DNA of 64,000 bases from positions 93,709 through 157,708 of the forward strand of contig DATFMP010000054.1 in assembly GCA_035266845.1 (NCBI GenBank). The letters are read 5' to 3'. Positions within the stretch are counted from its first letter, which is position 1. Each line of letters starts with the position of its first letter. Shown one piece after another: positions 24,880 to 35,563 of the stretch. Below the pieces are notes generated by a model that saw only the letters and a program-made list of their open reading frames with translations, searched no databases and was not told the DNA's origin. A program made the translations under genes and the position numbers. The stretch is from a bacterium (GTDB lineage Bacteria; SAR324; JACQKK01).

Positions 24880-26730
24880 CTAGTCGGCCAGCTGCTCGAA
24901 CGTCTGGCTGAGGTCATCCCGCACCGTGGAGCGACGCCGCGAGAATTCGGCGAACGCGGTGTCGTGGAAGCCCCGGGAAACGGAGTACAGAAACTCGTTC
25001 AGCACGTTGGCCATCGCCATCATGGTGGTCTTCTTGCGCTTGACCGAGGTGATATCCAGCTCCAGCAGGGCGCCGGGCAGGATGTGGTACGGATTCACCA
25101 GCCCCTCGAACTCCTCGAACTTTTGCTCGAGGAAGTGCAAGCGGCTTTCCACGATGGTGCGATCGACCGGGTGCTGATTGCCGAAGATCTGCTGCAGCCG
25201 GTGCTTCGTGGCCGAGACGCGCTTGCGGAGCTCTTCCACGATGTACAGGTTGGTCTTGTTCATCTCCTCCACTTCGGTCGAGCGGGGCGGGACGAACACG
25301 ACCTCGTTCCACAGCTTCGGCGGCTCTTCCTCCACCTCTTCTTCGACGGCGCGGGAGAACCAACCGCCGGCCTTGGGCTTATCCTTCTTGAGGTATTGGC
25401 GCGCAATGTCCTCGTAGTCCTGGATGCCCTTGGCGGCCTTGTTGTCGTTGTACAGGACGTCCACCACGTTCACGACCTTCATGATCTCGGTATGAAGCTC
25501 GTCGAACTGGGCATCGTAGGCATTGCGCATACCCCGCACCTGCTCGTCATCGTAGTACGACAGGCGGATGCCGTAGCGCTCGTCGGGCAGCGCATTGACG
25601 TCCGTGTCCTCGTACTCGCGGATGACGCACTGGCGCGCGTTCTTGTAGTTCTCGATGTGCTGGTAGCCCATCTTGGAGGTGTCCAGCACCGAGGTCAGGT
25701 TGTTCACCGCCGTGTTGAAGCCGCGGTTCCGGATGTTCTCGTTGTCGATGATGCGCTTAATGTTCTCACGCACATTGAGCGGATCGAACTCGTCCGGATC
25801 GATCTCGGCGTGCAGGCCCTCGATGCGGTCCATGAAGCGCTTGGCGATGAACTGGTAACGCCGCGACTGTTCGTTGTTCACGTCGTCGTCGACGTAGTTG
25901 TCCAGGGCCTTGATCTTCTCGAACATCACCTCGGTGTCCGACAGCTCTTCCTTGCCTTCATCGATCAGGGTGTTGTTCAGCTCGGTGATTTCCTGCTCGA
26001 TCAGGGCGTGGATGTGCTTGCTGATGATGTCCTTGATGATCGTCGCCAGCGAGGTCTGGTAGTGATAGATGGGGCTGATCAACTCCGAATCCAGGATGTT
26101 GATCGCCAACTTCACATCCATCACCGTCTTGGGCTTGTAAAAGTTGTTCTTGAACGAGCACTTGGCGATCGCATAGGCGTTCTCGCCACGCACGAACGCG
26201 CCCACGTCCGACTTTTGACGCAGCAGCGCGTTGGTCTCGTTCTCCAACTCGTACATCCCACGCTGCACGTGCCCTTGCAGGTGCCCGTAGATGTTGACGA
26301 TGGACTTCTCAATCTCGCCCGTATTGAACTTGTCGATCCCGCCGATTTTGTCCAGGATCTCGGCGATCTCCCGCGGTGTATAGCGGTTGAGCGCTCGATA
26401 CTCCTCCTTGTCCACCAGATCACGTACCTTCTTGCCCAGTTCATCCTCCATAGTGGTGATGTACCGGTTGTACATGTTCTGGAAGTTCTGGTTGAAGTAG
26501 TTGTGCAGCTTCGACTTGATGGAGCCCATCACGTCGAGCTTTTCCAACACTTCAGGCGGGAGCTTCGCGTGGATATGGTTCAGGACCTTATCCACTTCCT
26601 CGTCGATGAGGAGCTTGGACTCTTCGTATTCGTTCCTGTTGTCACGATTGAGGCTGTTCCGCGACCCCACCGCACTCGGCTTTTCCGGGTGGATGACGTT
26701 GGGTCCTCGGGTCATGCTGTCTCGAGCCAT
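24880..26730 (-). CDS. hypothetical hydrophilic protein, K/N/Y/I/E/D-rich (616 aa), no recognised domain
   Basis: Long ORF with AGGAG RBS 8 nt upstream of the ATG, TTGACA box upstream and a strong terminator downstream. No P-loop and no signal peptide. Amino-acid composition is atypical for this genome but codons are GC3-rich. Confidence 0.8.
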   Translation of the reverse strand: MARDSMTRGPNVIHPEKPSAVGSRNSLNRDNRNEYEESKLLIDEEVDKVLNHIHAKLPPEVLEKLDVMGSIKSKLHNYFNQNFQNMYNRYITTMEDELGKKVRDLVDKEEYRALNRYTPREIAEILDKIGGIDKFNTGEIEKSIVNIYGHLQGHVQRGMYELENETNALLRQKSDVGAFVRGENAYAIAKCSFKNNFYKPKTVMDVKLAINILDSELISPIYHYQTSLATIIKDIISKHIHALIEQEITELNNTLIDEGKEELSDTEVMFEKIKALDNYVDDDVNNEQSRRYQFIAKRFMDRIEGLHAEIDPDEFDPLNVRENIKRIIDNENIRNRGFNTAVNNLTSVLDTSKMGYQHIENYKNARQCVIREYEDTDVNALPDERYGIRLSYYDDEQVRGMRNAYDAQFDELHTEIMKVVNVVDVLYNDNKAAKGIQDYEDIARQYLKKDKPKAGGWFSRAVEEEVEEEPPKLWNEVVFVPPRSTEVEEMNKTNLYIVEELRKRVSATKHRLQQIFGNQHPVDRTIVESRLHFLEQKFEEFEGLVNPYHILPGALLELDITSVKRKKTTMMAMANVLNEFLYSVSRGFHDTAFAEFSRRRSTVRDDLSQTFEQLAD

Positions 26731-28080: not shown

Positions 28081-30351
<2,271 letters not shown>

Positions 30352-30663
30352 GCATGAAGCGTCCCCGGCCCCCGCGTGTCACGCGGGAGGCCGGGCCGCA
30401 GGGCGGCACACGCACTGGTGCGGAAGCACCGGCCGGGCCGTGTACGGTCCGCGTCCCACCCATGTTTTTTGTTGCGCGGCAATTCAGGATAGACTATCAG
30501 GTGAAACCCAATTCCTGCCCGCTAGCGGGGGTGCGCGGGAAGGAGCCGCTCCGGAGCCGTTGAACGCGGCGGCCCGGGCCGGTCGGCAAGGGGGGCTGGC
30601 TCGCACCCCCATGCGTCTTGCAGCACTCCCACGCAACGCATAGGGACAGCGGAACGACCGACG

Positions 30664-31704
30664 ATGGCGACGACCAAGAAGAAGGCTCAGCCCAAGCCGA
30701 AGGCAAAAAACACGGTATCCCGATCGAAATCGGCGGGAACCTCATCGGCCTCTCGTGCCTCCAAAGCGTCGAAGCCGACGCGGACGGCAACGGCGTCGAA
30801 GGCCACCAAGGCCTCGAAAGCCAAAGCGCCGAAGGCGAAGGCCTCTCCGGCCAAGGCGGCAAAGACGACCGCCAAGGCTCCGAAGGCCACGAAACCGGCC
30901 AAACCGACGAAGAGCGCGGCATCGTCTCGAACAACCCGGGCCGCAGCCGCGTCCACGGCAAAGTCATCGCGAGCGTCGAAACCGGCCAAGGCCGCCGGCG
31001 CTGCACGTGCCAAACCCGCGCCGAAACCGGCCAAGGCCGCCGGCGCATCCCAGGCCAGAGGAGCGGCAAAGACGTTGAAAGCGACAGGAGGATCGAAGTC
31101 ATCCAAGGTGGCAAGCACCAAGGCGAGCAAGGCCAAGCCCGCACCCAAGACGGCCGCGAAAGCGCCCAAGGTAGCGAAGGCCAAACCGGCCCCGAAGGCC
31201 GCCGCCCCCAAGGCCGCGGCCAAGGTACCGCCACCGCCGGTGGTGCCCGAGATGGGGGAGTCTCTCACCGAGAAGCTTCCGCACATCGACGACAAGACGT
31301 TGGGCAAGATCATTGCCAAGCTGCAGGAGATGCGCGAGGAGAGCCTGTCCATCGTCAATCAGAACATGCAGACGGACCTGAAGCCGCGCGAGGAAGCCTC
31401 CGACGTGGGGGACGACCTGGATCAGGCCAGCAACGAGCGCGACCGGGAGTTCAACCTCATCATGCACCAGCGCCATCTGCGCCGGTTGCAGCAGATCAAC
31501 GATGCGTTCGAGCGCATCGATGACGGCAGCTACGGCCTGTGCGAGGGGACGGACGAGCCCATCAATCCCAGGCGGCTGCTGATCATGCCGCTGGCCCGCT
31601 TCAGCCTGGAGTACCAGGAGCAGCAGGAGAAGATGCTGGGCCGCACCGTGGAAACGGAGCAGTTCCTGGAGAGCGGCGAGGACTCCTTCAGCGCCGAAGA
31701 GTGA
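30664..31704 (+). CDS. DksA/TraR-family regulator with N-terminal AKP-rich histone-H1-like domain
   Basis: C-terminal 150 aa carries the DksA coiled-coil tip (DVGDDLDQASNE) and a degenerate zinc finger (LCEGTDEPINPRRLLIMPLARFSLEY; only 1 of 4 Cys). The N-terminal ~200 aa are KPAKA/AAKA low-complexity repeats. Confidence 0.75.
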   Translation: MATTKKKAQPKPKAKNTVSRSKSAGTSSASRASKASKPTRTATASKATKASKAKAPKAKASPAKAAKTTAKAPKATKPAKPTKSAASSRTTRAAAASTAKSSRASKPAKAAGAARAKPAPKPAKAAGASQARGAAKTLKATGGSKSSKVASTKASKAKPAPKTAAKAPKVAKAKPAPKAAAPKAAAKVPPPPVVPEMGESLTEKLPHIDDKTLGKIIAKLQEMREESLSIVNQNMQTDLKPREEASDVGDDLDQASNERDREFNLIMHQRHLRRLQQINDAFERIDDGSYGLCEGTDEPINPRRLLIMPLARFSLEYQEQQEKMLGRTVETEQFLESGEDSFSAEE

Positions 31705-31755: not shown

Positions 31756-32826
31756 TCACAGCGGCCCCGGCTCCGCCTCCACGTGCTGCTTGATGCGTTG
31801 CAGCAACCGCGAGGCGGGCGCCCCATCCACCGCTTTGTGATCGAAGCTGAGACAGAACGTGCACATGGGCGCGGCCACCACGCGTCCATCGCGCACCACT
31901 GCGCGCTCCTCTACCTTACCCACGGCCAGGATGAACGTCTCCGGCGGGTTGAGCACCGCCGTGAACGCCGTGACGTCGAACTCGCCCAGGTTGGTGATGG
32001 TGAGGCTGCTGGCGTAGAGCTCCTCGCGGGAGAGCGTCATGCGCAGGGCTTTGCGGATCAGCCCCTTGAAGCGGCGCTGAATCTCCAGCAGCCCCGCATC
32101 CGCCAGATTCTTCATCGACACCGTGATCAGGTTGTCGCCCAGCGCTACGGCCATGCCCACGTGGATGCCCTCCAGGGGCACCACGTCGCCGTCGATGAGG
32201 TGGAAGTTGAAGCCCGGCAGCTCCTGAAACGCCTTCACCACACCGTGGGCGATGTACACGTTGTAGCTGGGCGCCTCCTTGCCGTCCGCCTTGAGTGCCT
32301 TGCGATGGGCCTCCACCTGTGAGAAATCCACCTCCGCGAACAGATCCACTTTGGGCGAACCGACCCACGAGCGGGCCATGCGCTGGGCCGTCACCCGCCG
32401 CAACTGGTGGCGCAGCAGGCCCCGCTGACGCGCCGTGAACTCCGCCGGGGCCGGCGCGGCATCGTCCTGCAGTTGCCGCGGACCGAAGGTCTCGGGCGGA
32501 ACCGCCAGCAACGCGGAGAGATTGGGCGGCGGCGGGGCCACCTCGGACTCCCAGCCTACGATGCGGCAACCGCCGGCCGGCGCGGTCTCGCCCTTGCGGC
32601 CGATCCAGCCCAGGCGCTCACCTTCCGGCACGATGGCGCCCTCGGGCGCCCACACGGCCAGCAGCACGCCATCCGCTCCGGCCTCCAGCACGTGCACGGT
32701 TTTCTCCATGGACACTTCCACCAGGGCCTCCCCCGCCGTCACGGGCTGGCCGAGGGGCTTGAGCCACTGCAGGACAGTGCCTTCGCGGGTGCCGTAACCG
32801 AGGTTGGGTAGCAGAATGGCCGGCAT
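31756..32826 (-). CDS. 2-oxoacid dehydrogenase E2 component (dihydrolipoamide acyltransferase), single lipoyl domain
   Basis: Start at MPAILLPNLGYG. Lipoyl-lysine context EVSMEKTVHVLEA. Catalytic DHKAVDG. No E1/E3 adjacent. Confidence 0.8.
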   Translation of the reverse strand: MPAILLPNLGYGTREGTVLQWLKPLGQPVTAGEALVEVSMEKTVHVLEAGADGVLLAVWAPEGAIVPEGERLGWIGRKGETAPAGGCRIVGWESEVAPPPPNLSALLAVPPETFGPRQLQDDAAPAPAEFTARQRGLLRHQLRRVTAQRMARSWVGSPKVDLFAEVDFSQVEAHRKALKADGKEAPSYNVYIAHGVVKAFQELPGFNFHLIDGDVVPLEGIHVGMAVALGDNLITVSMKNLADAGLLEIQRRFKGLIRKALRMTLSREELYASSLTITNLGEFDVTAFTAVLNPPETFILAVGKVEERAVVRDGRVVAAPMCTFCLSFDHKAVDGAPASRLLQRIKQHVEAEPGPL

Positions 32827-33130
32827 GGAGCGTCCTCGGGAATCGCGGGGGGTCGGAGCGCGGGGGGCCCGCCCGGACCCGCCGTCAGCGCCCTTCGGAT
32901 AGCACACTAGCCGCCCGCGCCGCAATGCGGCAAGCGCAGGGCCGATCCGTCCGCGGCACCCCCTGTGGGTTGATGTAGCTTGACTTTTGGCCCGGTTTTC
33001 CGAAGATAGGCAGACTTCCTGCAGAGCCGCCGCGGCAGACGACGCCCGGCCATGCCCGCCCCGGCGGGCTGCGCCGCGTGCGAGCCGGTGGATGCAGGCT
33101 GGCAGGCACCAACGCCAACAAGGACCGCAC

Positions 33131-34258
33131 ATGGAGTTCAAGATTCAACCCGTCCCGGCAACGGAGCGGCGTCCGAAACCTACGGACGAGAACAAGTTAG
33201 GCTTCGGCAAGATCTACAGCGACCACATGTTTACGGCCACCTGGAGTCCTAACGGCGGGTGGGCCCAAGGCACGGTGAAGAAGTATGGTGCGCTCGACCT
33301 GGCTCCTGCGGCGTTGGTACTCCATTACGGGCAGACGATCTTCGAGGGCCTCAAGGCCTACCGGAACCAGCACGGCACGATCAACCTGTTCCGGCCGCTG
33401 AAGAACCTGGAGCGCTTCAACCGCTCCGCGGCGCGGCTGGACCTGCCGCAGGTGCCCGAGGAACTGTTCATGGGTGCGATCGAGGCGCTGCTGGAACTGG
33501 ATCACGAGTGGATTCCGCACTCCCACGGCACCTCGCTCTACATCCGGCCCACCATGATCGGCGCCGAGCCCTACATCGGGCTCAAGTCGGCCTCCGAGGT
33601 GCTGCTGTTCTTCATCACCGGCCCGGTGGGTGCGTACTATCCCGAGGGCTTCAACCCGGTGAAGATCACCGTCTGCGAGGCGTACTCGCGCGCGGGGCCG
33701 GGCGGCCTGGGCTCGGCCAAGACGGCCGCCAACTATGCGGCGAGCCTGCTGGCCGAAAAGGAAGCCATCAAGCGCGGCTTCACGCAGGTGCTCTGGCTGG
33801 ATGCGGCCGAGCGCAAGTACGTGGAGGAAGTCGGCTCGATGAACATCCTGTTCAAGATCAAGGGCAAGGTGGTCTCCCCTCCGCCGGGCGAGACGATCCT
33901 GGCGGGCATCACGCGCGATTCCGCGCTGCAACTGCTACGCAGTTGGGACGTGCCCGTGGAGGAGTACCGCATCACCATCGACGAGGTGCTGCAAGCCCAT
34001 GCCGACGGCACGCTGGAGGAGGTCTTCGGCGCGGGTACCGCGGCTGTCATCTCCCCGGTGGGCCTGCTGGAGTACAAGGGCCACAACTACGAGGTCGCCG
34101 ATGGCCAGACCGGCCCCGTGGCCCGCAAGCTGTTCGATGAGCTGATGGGCATCCAATATGGCCTGCGTCCGGATCCCTTCCAGTGGATTCACGAGGTCGT
34201 GCCCACCACGCTCAAAGCCAACGTAGCCTCCCAACCGGTAGCCGCGACCCGCTCGTAA
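33131..34258 (+). CDS. ilvE: branched-chain amino acid aminotransferase (fold type IV)
   Basis: MEFKIQP...GFGKIYSDHMF...QTIFEGLKAYR...EVFGAGTAAVISPV. Confidence 0.88.
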   Translation: MEFKIQPVPATERRPKPTDENKLGFGKIYSDHMFTATWSPNGGWAQGTVKKYGALDLAPAALVLHYGQTIFEGLKAYRNQHGTINLFRPLKNLERFNRSAARLDLPQVPEELFMGAIEALLELDHEWIPHSHGTSLYIRPTMIGAEPYIGLKSASEVLLFFITGPVGAYYPEGFNPVKITVCEAYSRAGPGGLGSAKTAANYAASLLAEKEAIKRGFTQVLWLDAAERKYVEEVGSMNILFKIKGKVVSPPPGETILAGITRDSALQLLRSWDVPVEEYRITIDEVLQAHADGTLEEVFGAGTAAVISPVGLLEYKGHNYEVADGQTGPVARKLFDELMGIQYGLRPDPFQWIHEVVPTTLKANVASQPVAATRS

Positions 34259-34426: not shown

Positions 34427-35563
34427 ATGACGTTGCAGATGCAGATCGCGCCCGTCCCGCCCGAGCAGCGGCAGGCCAAACCACAGGATCCCACCCGACT
34501 GGGCTTCGGCCGGGTGTATACCGACCACATGTTCACGATGCGCTGGAGCGCCGAGCACGGCTGGCACGACGCGCAACTGGGGCCCTTCGAGCCGCTGGCG
34601 CTTTCCCCCGCGGCCATGGTGCTGCACTATGCGCAGACGATCTTCGAGGGCCTCAAGGCCTATCGCACGCCGCAGGGTACCGTGAACCTGTTCCGCCCGG
34701 CGGACAACGCCGAGCGCTTCGACCGCTCGGCCGAGCGCCTGGCCCTGCCACTGCTGCCGCCCGGGGCCTTCGTGGCGGCGGTGGAGGCGCTCGTGGCGCT
34801 GGAGCGGGACTGGGTGCCGCAGGCCCCGGGCACCTCGCTGTACGTCCGCCCGACCCTGATCGCCACCGAGCCCCACCTGGGCGTGCGACCCGCCGCCGAG
34901 GCCCTGTTCTTCGTCATCGCGGGCCCGGTGGGGCCGTACTACCCGGAGGGCTTCGCGCCCGTGCGCATCACAGTGGCCGAACACTACGTGCGCGCCGCGC
35001 CCGGCGGGCTGGGCGCAGCAAAGACGGGTGCCAATTACGCCGCCAGCCTGCTGGCCGCCGAGGAGGCGAAGGCGGAGGGTTACACGCAGGTGCTGTGGCT
35101 CGATGCCATCGAACGCCGCTACGTGGAGGAGGTCGGCGCCATGAACATCGCGTTTAAGATCGGCGGCACCGTGATCGCTCCGCCGGCGAGCGGCACTACC
35201 CTGGCCGGCATCACCATCCGCTCCGCGCTGCACCTGCTGCGGGGCTGGGACGTGTCGGTGGAGGAACGCCGCATCACCATCGACGAGGTGCTGCAGGCCC
35301 ATGCCGACGGCACGCTGGAGGAGGTCTTCGGTGCGGGCACGGCCGCGGTGATCTCGCCCGTGGGCCTGCTGGCCTACCAGGGCCGCCAATACGAGATCGC
35401 GGGGGGCGGCACGGGCCCGCTGGCACAGCGGCTGTTCGATGAGCTGACCGGCATCCAGTATGGCCAGCGCCCCGACCCCGATGGGTGGATCCGTGCAGTG
35501 CCGCCGGCGCCGCCAACACCCCGGAGGCAGGCCCCACTGCCGCTGCCGGCGGCCGGGCGCTGA
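34427..35563 (+). CDS. ilvE: branched-chain amino acid aminotransferase, tandem paralog
   Basis: Collinear with the upstream copy (~60% aa identity by eye). Shares a ~66-nt near-identical DNA stretch with it. Confidence 0.85.
   Translation: MTLQMQIAPVPPEQRQAKPQDPTRLGFGRVYTDHMFTMRWSAEHGWHDAQLGPFEPLALSPAAMVLHYAQTIFEGLKAYRTPQGTVNLFRPADNAERFDRSAERLALPLLPPGAFVAAVEALVALERDWVPQAPGTSLYVRPTLIATEPHLGVRPAAEALFFVIAGPVGPYYPEGFAPVRITVAEHYVRAAPGGLGAAKTGANYAASLLAAEEAKAEGYTQVLWLDAIERRYVEEVGAMNIAFKIGGTVIAPPASGTTLAGITIRSALHLLRGWDVSVEERRITIDEVLQAHADGTLEEVFGAGTAAVISPVGLLAYQGRQYEIAGGGTGPLAQRLFDELTGIQYGQRPDPDGWIRAVPPAPPTPRRQAPLPLPAAGR

Follow-up and report, generated by a model that had tools for sequence, protein, structure and literature searches.

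Does the ORF at 30664–31704 encode one protein in which a DksA-type regulator is fused to a long basic tail, and is such a fusion a new kind of transcription factor? The ORF lies on the forward strand of the window (the whole stretch of DNA analysed here, 64 kb in length) and is single and unbroken, with an ATG start and 346 codons for amino acids in the ORF listing. Its product is an RNA polymerase regulator of the DksA type in which the zinc finger has been lost and a long disordered stretch rich in Lys, Ala, and Pro forms the N-terminus. It is the only DksA-like sequence in the six frames of the window, which contains no second DksA-like gene. The computed pI of residues 199–346 is 4.55, versus 12.0 for the tail. 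For this locus, the analysis established the identity and fold of the domain, the conservation of its motifs, the fusion, the synteny, and the prediction of disorder; the features of the locus are as follows.

30664–31704, forward strand: complete CDS, DksA-like with a basic disordered N-terminal tail (ORF listing, family matches, and the two-part layout shared by about 100 homologous clusters)
30664–31257, forward strand: residues 1–198, disordered tail rich in K, A, P, S, and T, similar in composition to the H1 C-terminus (composition, pI 12, AlphaFold, and relatives)
30973–31062, forward strand: imperfect direct repeat of 45 nt × 2 with 78% identity, encoding SKPAKAAGAARAKP and APKPAKAAGASQAR (repeat search)
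31189–31221, forward strand: 15-bp × 2.2 tandem repeat of APKAA units at the end of the tail (repeat search)
31291–31524, forward strand: residues 210–287, antiparallel coiled coil with helices 210–239 and 251–287 (AlphaFold pLDDT 90–97, Pfam DksA_N, and fold match)
31411–31428, forward strand: coiled-coil tip D250-D-L-D253-Q-A255, equivalent to D71-P-V-D74-R-A76 of Escherichia coli DksA (HMMER alignment to 1tjl)
31525–31614, forward strand: residues 288–317, globular region with a degenerate zinc finger of the C1 type, C293-x2-T296 ... S314-x2-Y317 (zf-dskA_traR)
31645–31701, forward strand: residues 328–346, acidic C-terminal extension ending in E-[DE]-S-F-x-x-[DE]-[DE] (column conservation; pLDDT 53–57)

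The C-terminal part belongs to the DksA/TraR superfamily (PF01258 and PF21157), with which its profile matches, fold, and tip all agree. TIGR02420 (NCBIfam dksA) matched residues 218–319 with an E-value of 1.2e-17, and the Pfam models DksA_N and zf-dskA_traR matched residues 220–285 (E = 2e-5) and 288–316 (E = 3e-5), respectively, at scores 0.5–2 bits short of gathering (24.4 versus 24.9 and 25.2 versus 27). The cutoffs of the canonical DksA equivalogs TIGR02420, NF033459, and PRK10778 were also missed (64.3 versus 115.5, 55.9 versus 105, and 23.9 versus 289 bits, respectively). Since the scores lie under every curated DksA cutoff, the protein is a divergent member of the family. PF01258 was matched by all 68 aligned relatives and PF21157 by 58 of them. 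The sequence matches in PDB were Pseudomonas aeruginosa DksA2 (4ijj, 3.5e-12), Chlamydia DksA (6ptg, 9e-11), and E. coli DksA (1tjl, 4.5e-4). AlphaFold placed the core (residues ca. [quoted passage not shown] The DksA architecture proposed in the original prediction from the letters alone was thus supported.

The same prediction had seen an acidic DxxDxA tip in DVGDDLDQASNE (residues 247–258) and a single remaining zinc-finger cysteine in LCEGTDEP...PLARFSLEY (residues 292–317), and both proved correct across the family. D250, D253, and A255 align to D71, D74, and A76 of E. coli and do not vary in any of the 101 relatives; substitutions at D74 or A76 abolish the function of E. coli DksA (10.1101/188680). 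R270 and R304, equivalent to R91 and R125 of E. coli, are likewise invariant (n = 101). The canonical cysteines (C114, C117, C135, and C138 in E. coli) are not kept, and the corresponding residues are C293, T296, S314, and Y317, with Cys in 101/101, Thr in 101/101, Ser in 99/101, and Tyr in 94/101 relatives. C293 is the sole cysteine of the entire 346-aa protein. In its sequence, the core is a C1-type DksA (at least three of the four cysteines replaced, DksA fold retained) and is predicted to be zinc-independent.

In E. coli, K98A and R129A abolish the binding of ppGpp at site 2 (PMC7676912; 10.1101/188680). K98 is replaced by Q277 in 101/101 relatives, R129 by M308 in 99/101, and K139 by Q318 in 101/101. 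Because of these replacements, the factor is probably ppGpp-insensitive at site 2, an argument that consists of the alignment to the E. coli residues. At the other site 2 positions, R91 is kept (R270) and L95 corresponds to R274, and the equivalents of both K94 (R273) and R91 are still basic. A hydrophobic residue occupies the position of the N88I substitution of E. coli "super-DksA". At the other end of the core, F342 of the acidic extension was found in 75/101 relatives, and positions 345 and 346 were acidic in 101/101. The extension runs beyond the end of the E. coli DksA sequence as aligned, and its motif recurs in L002 and L009, two orthologues that lack the tail. At the sequence level, the Gln, Met, and Gln at the ppGpp positions, the acidic C-terminal motif, and the strongly variable tail length are distinctive of this hppA-linked family.

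Residues 1–198 contain 43 Lys (22%), 8 Arg, 61 Ala (31%), 23 Pro (12%), 24 Ser, 19 Thr, 1 Glu, and no Asp, with a net charge of ca. +50, and AlphaFold gave pLDDT of about 40–58 without secondary structure, predicting disorder. A Pfam scan matched no domain on the tail, curated H1, Hc2, and AlgP models detected no homology to it, and PF07382 (HC2) was matched by only 2 of 68 relatives (E ≤ 0.01). Therefore, the term "H1-like" applies to composition and disorder and not to homology. The partly tandem DNA repeats also predicted for the tail are present but weak and imperfect; 30973–31040 can alternatively be read as a 21-bp period × 3.1 with 64% matches. A match of the tail to Peptidase_S64 (E = 0.11) was discarded as a weak low-complexity artefact. 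Besides the tail, the six frames of the window contain no K-rich low-complexity stretch. A peak of AT skew at 60–62 kb was considered as a second lysine-rich gene and rejected, since it covers a minus-strand Na+/H+ exchanger gene and the six-frame scan found no other K-rich segment; by inference, the skew is due to this membrane-protein gene. The homologue survey suggested along with the original prediction found tails of 50–226 aa and similar composition in the relatives. Orthologues L002 and L009 have no tail at the same locus, so the tail is not essential to the function of the core. As repeats expand and contract, tail length changes fast, and some orthologues can do without the tail altogether.

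The homologues form about 100 protein clusters from metagenome genomes (MAGs) of SAR324, Lambdaproteobacteria, or Deltaproteobacteria, and the neighbourhood of the gene includes the following two features.

28081–30351, forward strand: hppA, H+-translocating pyrophosphatase, upstream neighbour given for context only (Pfam H_PPase, E = 4.8e-247)
30472–30500, forward strand: promoter-like TTGCGC-N17-TATCAG overlapping the palindrome GATAGnCTATC in the hppA–dksA intergenic region (alignment of 7 loci, recognisable in 6)

In all seven related loci that retained upstream DNA, the gene was immediately preceded by hppA in the same orientation, and this synteny was kept in L002 and L009. The synteny is therefore not tied to the tail, and the idea that the tail is linked in function to hppA was set aside. 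The other neighbours included an E2 acyltransferase and aminotransferases, and zinc genes were not among them. The promoter-like element became visible only when the orthologous intergenic regions were aligned; a scan for consensus promoters and terminators found no sigma-70 site, and terminator-like hairpins occurred at chance level only. Neither a leader nor a riboswitch was detected with Rfam in the locus (E ≤ 1) or in the whole window (gathering thresholds), the lone match being a spurious lncRNA.

The combination of such a tail with DksA had been thought unusual, which did not hold up. The first homologue survey used the whole protein, and its word index was skewed to lysine-rich tails; it was therefore redone with the core only against an unindexed representative library. 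Among the 150 DksA-like representatives nearest to the core, 33 carried basic tails and only 56 had the CCCC finger. DdbA of Streptomyces coelicolor (SCO2075), in which an H1-like N-terminus is fused to DksA, has been characterised (Aldridge et al. 2013, PMC3643593): in EMSA, DNA is shifted by the N-terminal domain but not by the DksA-like domain, and overexpression of DdbA suppresses a relA phenotype. DdbA orthologues were reported only in streptomycetes, and the fusion was deemed Streptomyces-specific (PMC3643593). The C1, C2, and C4 types of DksA are likewise recognised, and C1 proteins can function (PMC9126822). Thus, the two-part design at 30664–31704 is real and conserved, but each of its features and the fusion are already known from other bacteria, which makes the protein a new example and not a new kind.

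Compared by description, DdbA shares with the present protein a lysine-rich basic N-terminus, a DksA-like C-terminus keeping the D71 and D74 equivalents, and tail lengths that differ among orthologues. In contrast, DdbA has a four-cysteine zinc finger, a 93-aa tail, and a locus near ftsZ, whereas the present family has C-T-S-Y, a tail of ca. 200 aa, hppA as neighbour, and a SAR324/Lambdaproteobacteria-like lineage. Neither the streptomycete lineage, nor the ftsZ locus, nor the Cys4 finger expected of a DdbA orthologue was found, and on this comparison by description the two tails were most probably acquired independently.

The core resembles the zinc-independent proteins P. aeruginosa DksA2 (C2, 4ijj), Chlamydia trachomatis DksA (C1, 6ptg), and Rhodobacter sphaeroides C1-DksA, in which cysteines are replaced and the fold is retained, and its best PDB sequence and fold matches are in this set. 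All three are without a basic tail. Proteins of the DksA2 type are Zur-regulated paralogues that back up a Cys4 DksA under zinc starvation. DksA2 contains no zinc (PMC9213440) and differs in keeping Lys, Arg, and Lys at the three ppGpp positions. Chlamydia DksA resembles the present protein in the replacement of K98 by Gln and of R129 by a hydrophobic residue but lacks the D71 and A76 equivalents (HQADQG), whereas the present family keeps DxxDxA strictly. This equally divergent C1-type DksA fails to complement E. coli dksA (PMC9126822), and canonical activity of the present protein is therefore not to be assumed. E. coli DksA itself has the same fold and DxxDxA tip as well as the matching arginines R91 and R125, but differs in its Cys4 finger and in having neither Q/M/Q, nor the 200-aa tail, nor the acidic C-terminal extension (ca. 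20% identity in the structural alignment). TraR of the F plasmid and its phage homologues, which keep the D and A tip residues, offer a possible functional analogy in acting on RNA polymerase free of ppGpp; however, TraR has 73 aa, is missing the first helix of the coiled coil, and retains Cys4, whereas the present protein has the full coiled coil. The tail resembles AlgP, PhaF (KPAA repeats), Chlamydia Hc2, and actinobacterial HupS in composition, disorder, positive charge, and repeat-driven length variation. Their tails are C-terminal and often consist of near-perfect short repeats, while that of the present protein is N-terminal, has degenerate repeats, and matches no profile. The KPAA tails of AlgP and PhaF bind DNA (PMC9239181).

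By analogy with these proteins, the product of 30664–31704 would most likely be a secondary-channel factor that is free of zinc, probably insensitive to ppGpp, and kept by its tail on the nucleoid or another polyanion. We infer RNA polymerase binding, ppGpp independence, and DNA binding as follows. As in E. coli DksA, the core would dock on the β′ rim helices of RNA polymerase with its coiled coil entering the secondary channel, and the DxxDxA tip, near the active site, would destabilise or remodel open promoter complexes; like TraR, it would not need ppGpp at site 2. The disordered polycationic tail would bind DNA non-specifically, like the lysine-rich N-terminus of DdbA and the KPAA tails of AlgP and PhaF, and would thereby concentrate the factor on the nucleoid beside its target. 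We consider this whole reading, a C1-type DksA core with a DNA-binding polycationic tail, reasonably probable.

Alternatively, the target of the tail may be not DNA but another polyanion, for example RNA or polyphosphate granules, or the tail may drive condensates; polyphosphate or energy state would then decide whether the protein is sequestered or released, in place of a nucleoid tether. AlgP, whose K/P/A tail is comparable (net charge +55), is recovered with polyphosphate granules and determines their position (PMC9239181), the present gene always adjoins hppA, which encodes a pyrophosphate-energised pump, and the tail is without sequence-specific features. However, the adjacency to hppA extends to the tail-less L002 and L009, a conserved promoter-like element of its own precedes the dksA-like gene, and the sole direct experiment on a DksA-linked lysine-rich tail revealed DNA binding (PMC3643593). 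We regard this alternative as fairly unlikely, and the polyphosphate and DNA readings can both hold.

We also considered that the DksA-like domain has diverged to a different partner and that the protein is mainly nucleoid-associated or architectural. Such divergence would fit the scores of every DksA model under its curated threshold, the loss of the ppGpp-site residues, the failure of Chlamydia C1 DksA to complement, and the conserved acidic motif at the C-terminus, which is missing from the E. coli DksA sequence as aligned and hints at an extra interaction. It is nevertheless improbable: the strict invariance of DxxDxA, R270, and R304 in 101 relatives is hard to explain without a secondary-channel function, and the core fold superimposes on RNA polymerase-bound DksA.

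A further possibility is that the tail is untranslated, the true gene being a standalone DksA of ca. 150–200 aa that starts at an internal codon and the upstream frame a GC-rich accident. An identical public protein (P0001) is called at 198 aa from GTG 31108, ATG 30664 has no strong Shine-Dalgarno sequence, GC3 is 0.75 in the tail versus 0.92 in the core, and there are tail-less orthologues; the probability of a 198-codon open frame by chance is ca. 0.01 at the local GC content. However, the lysine-rich frame is open in about 100 relatives, the invariant His of the core is preceded by more than 55 aa in all 96 relatives that were scored, whose N-termini read MAK, MAT, or MAA, and tails are retained in genomes of 58–60% GC (L004 and L007). 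No internal Met is conserved, and only 39 of 96 relatives have a Met at all in the 25 aa that precede the core. ATG 30664 aligns, together with its context, with the start codon of L001, the AT-rich lysine codons are the reverse of GC drift, and the lysine-rich segment is unique in the window. These results render an untranslated tail very improbable and bear out the original prediction that the N-terminus of ca. 200 aa and the core form one protein. An assembly or sequencing artefact that joined two ORFs in the low-complexity, partly repetitive tail DNA has practically no chance of being correct, since the repeats are short, match at only 64–88%, and are too degenerate to collapse, and the tail and core layout was assembled independently from many samples by many assemblers.

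Gene callers shorten such tails, as in the 198-aa call of P0001 and in Rhodanobacter homologues, called at either 162 or 392–448 aa, and databases therefore under-count the architecture. The combination of a secondary-channel factor with an H1-like polycationic tail is recurrent across DksA subfamilies (C4, C1-SA, and C1-SY) and phyla and is not confined to Streptomyces. SAR324-type bacteria are abundant and uncultured. The two-part protein is likely their DksA, and the prediction for it is that it works zinc-free and probably ppGpp-free at site 2. Going further, it might be the principal or sole DksA of SAR324/Lambdaproteobacteria, blind to ppGpp and regulated in location by its tail (nucleoid versus polyphosphate or RNA), with ESFxxEE folding back as an autoinhibitory switch. 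We consider this extended proposal quite unlikely as it stands; if true, transcription initiation would be tuned by the state of the nucleoid or polyanion and not by an alarmone.

The peptides quoted in the original prediction of a DksA/TraR-like regulator were found in the protein encoded by the following ORF; a six-frame scan of the window showed no other DksA-like sequence.

30664..31704, + strand, DksA-like ORF, ATG start, 346 aa

Its tail (residues 1–198) contains 43 K, 8 R, 61 A, 23 P, 24 S, 19 T, no D, and 1 E (pI 12.0) and is the only K-rich low-complexity stretch in the six frames; the core (residues 199–346) is acidic (pI 4.55). The NCBIfam dksA model (TIGR02420) matched residues 218–319 (E = 1.2e-17), and the yteA and DksA_like models matched at 1e-15. 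Pfam DksA_N (2e-5) and zf-dskA_traR (3e-5) were a fraction of a bit to 2 bits short of their gathering scores. The best PDB matches by sequence were Pseudomonas aeruginosa DksA2 (4ijj, 3.5e-12), Chlamydia trachomatis DksA (6ptg, 9e-11), and Escherichia coli DksA (1tjl, 4.5e-4). An AlphaFold model built from a 68-sequence alignment showed residues ~205–325 at pLDDT >90, with a coiled coil (helices 210–239 and 251–287) followed by a small globular region and a C-terminal helix. The top Foldseek matches in the PDB were DksA2 (TM 0.71) and E. coli DksA in a complex with RNAP and ppGpp (5vsw chain M, TM 0.71), and no unrelated structure was found below E = 0.8. The profile, sequence, and fold matches all support the predicted DksA architecture and place the domain of the C-terminal half in the DksA family.

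We aligned the core with E. coli DksA, of which residues 60–138 were confirmed by HMMER output, and with 101 close relatives. As had been predicted for an acidic coiled-coil tip, D250, D253, and A255, each of them invariant, correspond to E. coli D71, D74, and A76. With substitutions at D74/A76, DksA loses its function but not its affinity for RNAP (10.1101/188680). At the zinc-ligand positions, C293 and T296 occur in 101 of 101 relatives, S314 in 99, and Y317 in 94; C293 is the only Cys of the whole 346-aa protein, in agreement with the claim that one of four zinc-finger cysteines remains. By sequence, this C-T-S-Y motif is of the 'C1' type of the literature, in which DksA is described in C4, C2, and C1 forms, some C1 proteins being functional (PMC9126822), and DksA2 is without zinc (PMC9213440). 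In E. coli, ppGpp binding at site 2 requires K98, R129, and K139, with L95 and R91, and either K98A or R129A abolishes it (PMC7676912; 10.1101/188680). The equivalents in the window family are Q277 (101/101), M308 (99/101), and Q318 (101/101), with L95 replaced by R274 and R91 kept as R270. HMMER alignment showed that DksA2 of P. aeruginosa keeps K, R, and K at the first three positions; Chlamydia DksA has Q at the K98 position and I at the R129 position. C. trachomatis is not known to synthesise ppGpp. Judged from the alignment, the tip of the window family is fully canonical and its ppGpp pocket is dismantled, a combination that points to ppGpp-independent action. The alignment also revealed a conserved motif after the DksA C-terminal helix.

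31645-31701, + strand, acidic C-terminal motif E-[DE]-S-F-x-x-[DE]-[DE], residues 328–346

It runs beyond the end of the E. coli reference (an end outside the part confirmed by HMMER), and AlphaFold confidence is low across it. The motif may serve as a short linear interaction motif or pair with the basic tail within the same molecule.

The tail had been called H1-like. Its composition agrees with this name; homology does not, since no Pfam model matched the window tail and the Hc2 model touched only 2 of 68 relatives. 'H1-like' is therefore a description of composition only. AlphaFold gave residues 1–200 no secondary structure (pLDDT about 40–58). In DdbA (SCO2075), a Streptomyces coelicolor fusion of an H1-like N-terminus to DksA, the N-terminal domain shifts DNA in EMSA and the DksA-like domain does not; a ddbA mutant has altered nucleoid condensation and supercoiling, and DdbA overexpression suppresses a relA phenotype (PMC3643593). 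DdbA keeps Cys4, unlike the C1 window protein.

The best-supported reading, which we regard as probable, is that the core would be a zinc-free secondary-channel factor with a canonical tip, probably acting without ppGpp at site 2, and that the disordered polycationic tail would hold this factor on the nucleoid. A tail that targets polyP or RNA, or drives condensates, instead of binding DNA is unlikely. The K/P/A tails of AlgP and PhaF illustrate both abilities, DNA binding and association with polyP or PHA granules (PMC9239181). It is less likely still that divergence has given the core a role away from the RNAP secondary channel.

That the tail is untranslated is very improbable. The identical public protein (P0001) is called from an internal GTG at 31108, giving 198 aa in all and shortening the tail from ~200 to 51 aa. 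A whole-protein search yielded ~100 clusters (core identity 63–86%), nearly all with a K/A/P-rich N-terminal extension of 50–220 aa. All 96 scored relatives start with MAK, MAT, MAA, MAI, or MAQ and have >55 aa ahead of the invariant core His (median 128, maximum 226). Because only 39 of the 96 have any Met within 25 residues ahead of the core, there is no conserved internal start. The start at L001, the closest genomic locus, lines up with the window ATG, sequence context included. The chance probability of a 198-codon open frame is ~0.01 at the local GC content, and tails are still present in relatives of 58–60% GC (L004 and L007), where long accidental ORFs are unlikely. These comparisons argue against a separate ORF; on the sequence evidence, the N-terminal half and the DksA core form one protein, and the P0001 short form is a gene-caller truncation. 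An assembly artefact is extremely improbable, as the tandem DNA repeats noted earlier in the tail are genuine but short and degenerate (21-bp period × 3.1, 64% matches; 15-bp period × 2.2; 45 nt × 2, 78% identity), with no sign of such an artefact.

To remove the bias of a tail-containing query, we used only the 147-aa core as the query in a search of 1.84 billion representatives. Nine representatives at E<1e-30 formed the window family; below their 180 bits came a gap, the next scores being 113 bits for a 61-aa fragment and then 84 bits. Among the best 150 representatives, 47 had an N-terminal extension of at least 40 aa, 33 of these being basic (K+R at least 18% and D+E <10%; Cys4 9, C-T-S-A 12, C-T-S-Y 8, plus other types), and only 56 of the 150 had Cys4. 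Tailed examples include 'DksA' of Rhodanobacter/Rhodanobacteraceae (325–448 aa, some alternatively called at 162 aa). In this survey, both a basic tail and a missing Cys4 are common among environmental DksA-like proteins, and with DdbA published, the combination is not as unusual as first supposed. DdbA orthologues were reported only in streptomycetes (PMC3643593), and our literature search found no H1-like tail/DksA fusion described outside Streptomyces. Public calls for tail-bearing DksA-like genes are inconsistent (P0001, P0253, and P0278–P0291), and 162-aa and 392–448-aa versions of Rhodanobacter-type DksA fall in a single 90%-identity cluster. Systematic under-annotation of K-rich tails at the N-terminus is probable.

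The relatives that have names are MAGs with the labels SAR324 cluster bacterium, Candidatus Lambdaproteobacteria, or Deltaproteobacteria. The surroundings of the gene contain the following features.

24880-26730, − strand, full-length match to cytoplasmic filament protein CfpA (NCBIfam NF040882), 616 aa
28081-30351, + strand, hppA (H+-pyrophosphatase), direct upstream neighbour
30472-30500, + strand, conserved promoter-like element TTGCGC-N17-TATCAG
31756-33141, opposite strand to the aminotransferases, 2-oxoacid dehydrogenase E2 gene
32987-34258 and 34427-35563, + strand, tandem class IV (branched-chain) aminotransferase paralogues adjoining the E2 gene

Upstream DNA is retained in 7 related loci, and in every one of them hppA is the immediate upstream neighbour in the same orientation, also where the orthologue is without a basic tail. 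At this syntenic position, the tail is ~200 aa in L001, ~130 in L005 and L008, and ~75 in L007, and essentially absent in L002 (MATSKNAKIKSK, then core) and L009; thus, a single orthologous gene undergoes expansion, contraction, and even loss of its tail. The hppA-dksA intergenic region is 312 bp in the window. Its promoter-like element, aligned in L001, L002, L005, L007, and L008, suggests that the dksA-like gene has its own promoter and does not depend on hppA. The element was not called in a consensus promoter scan; it overlaps a near-perfect palindrome, GATAGnCTATC, which could be an operator. The implied 5′ UTR (~160 nt) matched no Rfam family. Branched-chain aminotransferase genes recur downstream among related loci; in the window, the 5′ ends of the long E2 and first aminotransferase ORFs overlap, which makes internal true starts probable for both. 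Separately, the cfpA-like gene, two genes upstream, is a spirochaete-type match in a high-GC SAR324/Lambdaproteobacteria-like genome. It scored 916 bits (cut-off 500), matched no Pfam model, and is extremely conserved among related loci, sharing 76% identity over 614 aa with L009 and 96–97% with partial copies in L005 and L003; every CfpA paper found concerns Treponema.

The original description is correct and verifiable, and the design is already published and widespread. The window family is set apart by its C1 motif, its loss of residues from the ppGpp pocket, its acidic motif at the C-terminus, and its linkage to hppA.
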